DNA from: Escherichia coli
GTDB lineage: Bacteria; Pseudomonadota; Gammaproteobacteria; Enterobacterales; Enterobacteriaceae
Assembly (NCBI RefSeq): GCF_045037415.1
Contig: NZ_CP173438.1
Reading direction: 5' to 3' (one strand)
Length of the DNA: 64,000 nucleotides
Shown here: piece after piece, positions 12,835 through 13,647 of the stretch
Layout: every line of letters starts with the position of its first letter
Numbering within the stretch: position 1 is the first letter of the stretch
Made by a program: the position numbers and the translations under genes
The notes under the pieces: generated by a model
What the model saw: the letters and a program-made list of their open reading frames with translations, nothing else
Database searches by the model: none
Told to the model about the DNA's origin: nothing

Positions 12835-13176
12835 TCCCCGGCGTGGTTTTGCGAGGCGCATTCCAGATCCGCATTGCGCCGCACTCACCGCAGCAAAACC
12901 GCTTGCCGTTCATAACCGATCGCAGTATCTTTCTCCCGCGCCTGCAAAATCAGGCGTCGGGATTAGCCTCCTGAAAACCGTTACAGGCGACACTTGACGC
13001 ACCAGCGTCTTTTTTGTGTCGTGCGTTCGGCTACACCTCAATGGCGGGCCGGGCGGGGGCGTCGCAAGACGCGCCGGTTTCCTGTAACGCCGGTAAGGCT
13101 AACCCCGTCCGGTTCCGCCCCCATGAGATTAGCCTCTCTAGTGGCGGACATAATAAACCGTTACAGGAGACGCCCT

Positions 13177-13647
13177 ATGGCTACAATCCTCATCTCTGAC
13201 TGCGATTTACTCGATCTATTGTCCGCTCCCTTCAATGCCACCACGGATTTCACCGTCCTGGCCGACTACTGCGCCCGCTTCGCCGAAACCCTGATAGAAA
13301 CCGACGATCCGGCGCTGCGGCTGGCGCTCTGCGGACGGCTTCACGCGGCTCTTGCGCTATTGCAACCCACGCTGCACGACCCCATCCCGCCGCATCTGAT
13401 TGAAAGCCTGACCGTTGATACCCTTCCCGCCACACCAGAGCACTTTATTTCCGAACCAGATTCCTTGTGCGAATACTGCCTCGCGCTGCTCCAGCTACTG
13501 CTGGAACGTCCAGCAGAGCCAAAAACGGAACAAACCCTGACCGGGCTTCTGTGTGAGCTGGTCTGGAATTTCACGGAAGGACTCAAATCCCCGCGCTGGC
13601 TGCGTACCGCCGACGGCGTAAAATTTATCAGTGAGGTGGCCGCATGA
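13177..13647 (+). CDS. Hypothetical protein, 156 aa
   Basis: ORF with AGGAG 7 nt upstream of ATG at 13177; the longer track ORF from 12994 is rejected as the start. Confidence 0.5.

Follow-up and report, generated by a model that had tools for sequence, protein, structure and literature searches.

Analysis of a 64,000-nucleotide stretch of an Escherichia coli chromosome (hereafter the window) indicates that positions 12903-13647 very probably constitute a single regulatory unit of the c4/IsrK/P4-CI type, in which a c4 antisense RNA would block the translation of a 156-aa open reading frame (ORF156) while a short leader RNA would serve as its decoy. By its architecture the locus belongs to a known family, namely the a1b1/c4/a2b2 arrangement typified by the immI regions of phages P1 and P7, the immunity region of phage P4 (seqA/CI/seqC) and the IsrK locus of Gifsy-1. 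ORF156 (13177..13647; on the plus strand, as are all features of the module given below) runs from an ATG at 13177 to a TGA at 13647 and is preceded by an AGGAG at 13165-13169, 7 nt 5' of the ATG, in agreement with the first-pass annotation of this DNA, which had described an ORF of this length with a good ribosome-binding site.

Two copies of a bipartite repeat precede ORF156. Formal repeat finding resolves each into two blocks: block 1 (GATTAGCCTC) is found at 12961..12970 in copy 1, with the core TTAGCCT at 12963-69, and at 13127..13136 in copy 2, and is identical at 10/10 positions; block 2 (AAACCGTTACAGGnGAC) takes the form AAACCGTTACAGGCGAC at 12975..12991 in copy 1, with the core CGTTACAGG at 12979-87, and AAACCGTTACAGGAGAC at 13155..13171 in copy 2, and is identical at 16/17 positions. 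The blocks are separated by 18 nt in copy 2 and by 4 nt in copy 1. Dinucleotide-preserving shuffling of 12840-13200 never yielded a colinear pair of blocks with lengths of >=10 and >=13 nt (0/2000), and it gave an exact 13-mer repeat in 2/2000 cases. The duplicated upstream motif of the first-pass annotation is thereby real by formal self-alignment, with limits slightly wider than it gave. The copies are not palindromic, and both blocks recur in reverse-complement form within the GC-rich DNA that separates the copies, as CCTGTAACG at 13081-89 and AGGCTAAC at 13096-13103.

This GC-rich stretch, which had been remarked upon earlier with its reverse complements and its RNA overlooked, is a C4 antisense RNA of the known phage type. 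The match to Rfam family RF01695 occupies 13037..13125 and spans the whole model (1-87 of 87) at 71.8 bits (gathering 45), with an architecture of a 17-bp closing stem, hairpin 1, hairpin 2 and a single-stranded linker. The segments left unpaired by the C4 model, namely the 12-nt recognition loop of hairpin 2 (UUUCCUGUAACG, 13078-89) and the 8-nt linker (AAGGCUAA, 13095-13102), are exactly the stretches that are complementary to the two repeat blocks. Judged by this complementarity, copy 1 represents the upstream a1/b1 target pair, with block 1 as the predicted target of the linker and block 2 as that of the hairpin-2 loop, and copy 2, the first block of which starts 2 nt past c4, represents the corresponding downstream a2/b2 pair. 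Each of the two single-stranded elements accordingly has an upstream and a downstream site on the same strand, as is characteristic of C4 RNAs. The loop is predicted to form a 13-bp duplex with copy 2 (-21.3 kcal/mol, matched by 0/500 shuffles) that spans ~13158-13171 and takes in the Shine-Dalgarno AGGAG, placing the downstream target over the ribosome-binding site of the first gene, a further characteristic of the family. With copy 1 the predicted duplex is of -17.1 kcal/mol, a value reached by 1/500 shuffles. Additionally, co-variation links CCRCC, on the 3' side of the closing stem of c4, to a GGYGG at 13143-47 (window 13114-13148). This pairing, which is supported by one variable position, tentatively suggests an alternative hairpin with the downstream linker target in its loop, which would display that target much as hairpin 2 of the leader RNA displays the upstream one.

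Copy 1 in turn sits within an IsrK-like leader sRNA (12938..13015), which is detected by the Rfam isrK model RF01394 over its full length (1-77) at 68 bits (gathering 50). The leader is predicted to fold into hairpin 1 (12938-57) and hairpin 2 (12958-73), the latter presenting UUAGCC in its loop, followed by a single-stranded stretch and a rho-independent terminator (GACGCACCAGCGTC and then TTTTTT; 12996..13016) that belongs to the isrK model match; the element hence combines a score above the gathering threshold with the 3' intrinsic terminator typical of isrK, a family whose traits also include Hfq binding. The same match is seen in loci L002-L004, and in the window the c4-a1b1 model (RF03163) scores 43.8 bits at 12925-12977, just below its gathering threshold of 46.7. 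Immediately upstream lies a putative sigma-70 promoter (12903..12931) with a -35 element TTGCCG (12903-08), a 17-nt spacer and a -10 element TATCTT (12926-31), for which the predicted transcription start is ~12938. A generic promoter scan did not report this module promoter (8/12 match vs the 9/12 threshold). The putative promoter was instead placed from conservation: in an alignment of 19 loci, CTTGCC has an invariant CT and the -10 element is invariant at the three defined positions of TAnnnT.

To place these predictions in an evolutionary context, we assembled 80 loci encoding relatives of ORF156 from different Enterobacterales species belonging to many genera, and built a c4 covariance model from four copies. 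This model detected a c4 directly upstream of the ORF156 homologue in 68/80 loci; together with the window and three E. coli relatives these furnish 72 c4 copies. Across the 72 copies 99.4% of the cells in the c4 fold are paired and 16/27 pairs show compensatory changes; 0/500 shuffles did as well, and sliding the pairing partners reduced the paired fraction to 33-46%. Set within this conserved scaffold are a loop of 31 types and a linker of 9 types, which occur in 42 combinations over the 72 loci. For the linker 7-mer, perfect complementarity to the upstream as well as the downstream position is found in 71/72 loci vs 0.05% of non-cognate pairings, and these target positions are fixed, the downstream one being 3-5 nt past c4. 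For the loop, a complementary stretch of >=7 nt exists at each of its two sites in 62/72 loci vs 9% of non-cognate pairings. Such three-way co-variation, involving the loop or linker and both of its targets, is direct evidence, of a comparative kind, for RNA-RNA recognition. The overlap of copy 2 with the Shine-Dalgarno sequence is seen in essentially every locus, and the GGAG within the downstream target is invariant in the 19-locus alignment.

These results bear directly on two earlier interpretations of the repeats, as an operator pair or as a partial duplication of the 5' region. The former draws some plausibility from the presence of two similar sites flanking the promoter-proximal region and from the gene for a DNA-binding (Ner-like) protein that follows in intact islands. 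However, each copy exactly complements the segments of c4 that are single-stranded and co-varies with them through 42 combinations, and an operator need not stay complementary to the loop of a neighbouring RNA, which speaks strongly against a protein operator; we instead regard the copies as RNA-level targets. As a description, a partial duplication is roughly apt, yet it leaves the function out of account, and a functionless one would not stay in register over many genera. Hence, we consider it highly improbable that a repressor protein uses the copies as DNA operators or that they form a duplication devoid of function.

In light of the above, we propose that the putative promoter at ~12903-31 would, as the single promoter of the unit, drive an IsrK-like leader of 78 nt, which includes copy 1 (a1/b1) and stops at the intrinsic terminator. 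Read-through would yield the 89-nt c4, then copy 2 (a2/b2) at the ribosome-binding site of ORF156, and then ORF156 itself, followed in intact islands by a translationally coupled Ner-like regulator in the same unit. The hairpin-2 loop and linker of c4 would pair with both blocks of copy 2 and occlude the Shine-Dalgarno sequence, leaving ORF156 untranslated, and copy 1 on the abundant short leader RNA would compete for c4 as a decoy or anti-antisense, such that the ratio of leader RNA to c4 sets the production of ORF156. In this scheme P1, P4 and Gifsy-1 serve as models for the co-transcription of the elements, for the processing of c4 from the transcript, for the direction in which regulation runs and for the decoy role. 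C4 RNAs are characteristically cut out of a longer transcript by RNase P and repress in trans. The read-outs of these relatives differ: P1 blocks translation, P4 terminates transcription, and Gifsy-1 relies on the leader RNA as an activator. We favour the translation block with a leader decoy because the Shine-Dalgarno sequence lies within the downstream duplex in essentially every locus.

The geometry of the unit is of the P1 type. The immI regions of P1 and P7 share with it the RNA family and its fold, two recognition elements with an upstream and a downstream site each, a downstream pair over the ribosome-binding site of the first gene, and the placement of RNA and target on one strand, apparently in one transcription unit. 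They also share the variation of recognition sequences between elements; indeed, the heteroimmune phages P1 and P7 differ in their c4 recognition sequences. There are differences as well: immI resides on a plasmid prophage rather than a chromosomal tRNA-linked defence island, its C1-type operator context is not seen here, and it regulates icd/ant, whereas here the regulated gene would be ORF156 (with the Ner-like regulator). The icd and ant genes that would mark a P1 immI region proper are absent at this position, ORF156 having no Pfam, PHROG or NCBIfam match. In P1 the C4 RNA blocks icd/ant expression and is needed for full repression, as stated in PMC8198154 with reference to Citron & Schuster 1990.

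The P4 immunity region presents a related but distinct precedent. Its CI RNA scores as C4 (74.9 bits) and its seqA region as isrK (60.8 bits), so that both match the same Rfam models as the window, and it has the same order of leader target, RNA, downstream target and first gene (in P4 epsilon, an antirepressor); P4-type integrases also flank the intact islands. In contrast, its read-out is by transcription termination, and the spacing from leader to RNA is 107 nt vs 21 nt here. By analogy with P4, pairing of c4 with nascent copies could cause premature transcription termination, instead of or besides a ribosome block. Beyond the shared models and the neighbouring integrases, this is favoured by the location of copy 1 immediately 5' of an intrinsic terminator and by the analogy to P4 raised in PMC4825925. 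Against it, the overlap of copy 2 with the Shine-Dalgarno sequence in essentially every locus, together with an invariant GGAG in the duplex, is a P1-type geometry, and a terminator scan found no terminator-like site between copy 2 and ORF156. We thus consider a P4-type read-out unlikely, albeit the most probable of the departures from our scheme; the two are not mutually exclusive. The island itself is no P4-like satellite in terms of gene content: a satellite gene set does not accompany the immunity region, and alpha, sid, delta and psu were found in neither the window nor the intact relative L004/L087, both of which carry only defence cargo and an integration module.

The third precedent, Gifsy-1 IsrK - orf45 (STnc1160) - anrP of Salmonella, shares the leader sRNA family with its terminator (RF01394), a structured RNA directly 3' of the leader to which the leader is complementary, and a downstream gene that is translationally silent. 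In that system IsrK acts in trans on its own read-through mRNA, a processed RNA, STnc1160, is found downstream of IsrK, for which the authors note the analogy to P4 seqA/CI, and orf45, which was tagged, overlaps this RNA (PMC4825925). It differs in that the leader activates translation via a small ORF coupled to anrP, which is unconserved here, and in that the regulated protein is antirepressor-like, belongs to a lambdoid prophage and is unrelated to ORF156. The module also has relatives at ~72% identity in ~196 phage records, mostly of Stx and lambdoid phages, and in phage 2H10, the one inspected, an antirepressor/regulator ORF is annotated over it.

The Gifsy-1 precedent raises the question of a small ORF in the window. 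RefSeq annotates an 'ash family protein' ORF of 52 codons (13041..13199) on top of c4, which overlaps the start of ORF156 by 23 nt, and it could be supposed that this orf45-like ORF is translated, coupled to ORF156 and activated by the short leader RNA, just as translation of orf45 is required for anrP expression (PMC4825925). However, read from a conserved ATG the ORF varies from 3-199 codons across the 72 loci, with a stop at codon 9 in 16 of them, and changes in loop length shift its frame; moreover, ORF156 has its own invariant Shine-Dalgarno sequence. A conserved orf45-like ORF is accordingly not found in this unit, and we regard the Gifsy-1-type mechanism as rather improbable here; the 'ash' ORF is probably not a gene. 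Its translation matches positions 49-93 of PF10554 (Phage_ASH) at 30 bits, and over the translated c4 regions of the window and P4 the matches cover profile positions 47-93 at 30-32 bits. In the phage P4 record (L086, 8168-8584) the C4 match falls inside the old protein-style 'cI gene product' CDS, and the isrK match lies a short way 5' of it. PF10554 serves as a marker for P4 epsilon, and part of this profile seems to model a translated RNA.

As for the protein that the RNA switch would control, ORF156 is a real gene under purifying selection: changes fall mostly in third codon positions and synonymously changed codons outnumber nonsynonymous ones. Its homologues comprise 608 protein clusters, all from Enterobacterales and all named 'hypothetical', and the family occurs in ~20% of complete E. 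coli genomes (1074/5426); together with the 80 loci this establishes its conservation in related islands. It is rare on plasmids, and tblastn recovered a single 1.4-kb record among 50,697 phage records. A confident AF2 model (pLDDT 85.9) predicts a four-helix bundle with a C-terminal beta-hairpin. No match was obtained with Pfam, PHROG, NCBIfam, PADLOC or PDB sequence profiles, and Foldseek comparison of the model with viral structures returned nothing at E <= 0.001, so that the initial description of a gene with no assignable function holds through sequence-profile, remote-homology and fold searches. An exhaustive HMM search of 1.84 billion representatives yielded 228 proteins, none of which is an informative fusion; the long ones arise from reading through the translated c4 region (PF10554). 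A relationship to P4 epsilon or ORF151 was considered and rejected (hhalign probability <1%), and neither profile searches nor this comparison revealed detectable similarity of ORF156 to any antirepressor. By position, ORF156 would correspond to the antirepressor or inducer genes P1 ant, P4 epsilon and Gifsy-1 anrP. Since its position matches that of the antirepressor/inducer genes found under this RNA family, we offer with low confidence the guess that it might be a protein-binding inducer acting, along with the Ner-like regulator, on the integration/excision module of the island.

An alternative view of ORF156, as the toxin of a type I-like addiction or abortive-infection module with c4 as antidote, would explain the persistence of orphan modules in decayed islands. 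Indeed, about half of the 80 loci keep c4 and ORF156 with no Ner-like, Integrase_1 or int gene nearby, the window's module is placed among defence genes (AbiE and type I restriction-modification), and some targets of the c4 family elsewhere are toxic, namely P1 icd and Gifsy-1 AnrP via AntQ, according to statements in PMC8198154 and PMC4825925. However, four loci without c4 retain a full-length ORF156, as judged by translation in L012 and L067 and by ORF length in L046 and L079, from which it follows that c4 control is dispensable in cis. Furthermore, ORF156 is predicted to be a 156-aa soluble helical protein rather than a small membrane peptide, and it has no PADLOC match. ORF156 therefore does not resemble the small toxic peptide, nor c4 the unlosable antisense RNA, of type I toxin-antitoxin systems, and a toxin module appears to be a poor prospect.

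Deviant loci illustrate how the arrangement varies. In L012 (7860-7975) the leader terminator and the whole c4 are precisely absent, with the junction inside a repeated GATTGGTCTC block, and it looks like recombination between repeat copies deleted c4; the promoter remains, along with a single hybrid target and ORF156, which is intact. In L046, L067 and L079 (~7870-7990) the isrK-like leader stands directly before the ORF and c4 is absent. In L009 and L022 (both 7841-7925) an sRNA-Xcc1 (RF02221, ~70 bits) stands where c4 would otherwise precede the ORF156 homologue, with its own short terminator-ended leader 5' of it that is seemingly partly complementary; here an analogous architecture appears to have been built with another RNA.

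Gene-neighborhood analysis further indicates that ORF156 is part of the island backbone and not cargo, as the first-pass annotation had classified it. The genes ahead of the module differ among related E. coli strains, including type I restriction-modification systems of two kinds, a 1069-aa reverse transcriptase and an AAA_13 ATPase, and c4 and ORF156 remain constant beside the integration module. In ~40/80 loci the stop of ORF156 overlaps, or is at most 12 nt from, the start of a gene for a 71-aa Ner-like HTH_35 protein (in L004 the intact 71-aa homologue matches PF13693 with E = 1.2e-32), and the ATGA overlap indicates that the two genes are translationally coupled in intact relatives. Further 3' there come, where present, the gene for an Integrase_1 (PF12835) protein, the oppositely oriented gene of a P4-type integrase, and a tRNA gene; in the ~40 loci without Ner-like or int neighbours the downstream genes are heterogeneous and none is conserved. 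An EFASI RNA (RF02957, 96-121 bits) lies between the Ner-like and Integrase_1 (PF12835) genes in 3/3 intact islands scanned (L004 15400-15526, L009 10197-10326 and L022 10080-10209), on the same strand as c4 and ORF156, and may be part of the same operon. The one island that was fully inspected, at pheV in E. coli 2022H047 (L004; ~21.5 kb), has solely defence-like cargo in addition to the backbone.

In the window the corresponding Ner-like HTH_35 gene is a pseudogene (13644..13780), whose ATG overlaps the ORF156 stop (ATGA, 13644-47) and which has a TGG -> TGA change at codon 6 and a later frameshift or internal deletion. Given this pseudogene and the deletion of Integrase_1 and int downstream, the switch may be a relic in the window, with its downstream partners being lost. 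As noted previously, ORF156 lies between hsdS and tRNA-Thr(CGT) (thrW; 14011-14086, minus strand), at the thrW end of an island with AbiE, hsdR (6070-9189), hsdM (9183-10820) and hsdS (10810-12834), beyond which come proA/proB/phoE; the region of the module is 100% identical in many ST131 genomes. The hsdS gene is split by an IS1 (11100-11830, with its insA/insB ORFs on the minus strand), given which the type I restriction system of this island is probably without a functional specificity subunit; strain THO-015 (L001) has an intact hsdS. Outside the module, a C-terminal fragment of a tyrosine recombinase (13790..13997, plus strand) ends 14 nt short of the 3' end of thrW, and in its R-Y-A-H-L motif the conserved Tyr is replaced by a stop codon (…EMVRR*AHL…). 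The fragment is probably a remnant of another thrW-integrating element, and a P22-like prophage occupies its position in strain GF43 (L003).

Several genomes possess more than one module, with up to four copies per genome, for example in Enterobacter sp. ENT03 and Enterobacteriaceae bacterium 89 (the multi-copy sets being L005/L008, L013/L027/L046/L067 and L028/L033/L058/L060). In the co-resident copies that were read the loop and linker combinations differ between copies, which would fit immunity groups. The window's own combination of loop and linker was found on no IMG/VR contig, the two matches to its degenerate pattern being without c4.

It is tempting, if doubtful, to go further and view the c4/IsrK three-RNA switch as the master control ('immunity') of a previously undescribed type of non-phage, tRNA-integrated defence island of Enterobacterales, with ORF156 as a new inducer or antirepressor and the 42 or more combinations as immunity groups. 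If this were so, the backbone of such islands would consist only of the IsrK-like leader, c4, ORF156, the Ner-like HTH_35 protein, the EFASI RNA, the Integrase_1 protein and a P4-type int; titration of c4 would let ORF156 switch on excision or transfer, and the immunity groups would stop cross-talk among the up to four islands resident in a genome. At a more immediate level, a mystery repeat is resolved as a textbook RNA switch, what is annotated next to it as an 'ash family protein' most likely represents a translated RNA, and the hypervariable, co-evolving recognition loops offer a natural set of orthogonal antisense/target pairs. The switch also provides a handle on the uncharacterised ORF156 family, which is almost always wired to it and is situated where the variable defence cargo meets the integration module. 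Should ORF156 control the mobility of the island or answer to phage, this would explain how such islands are regulated.
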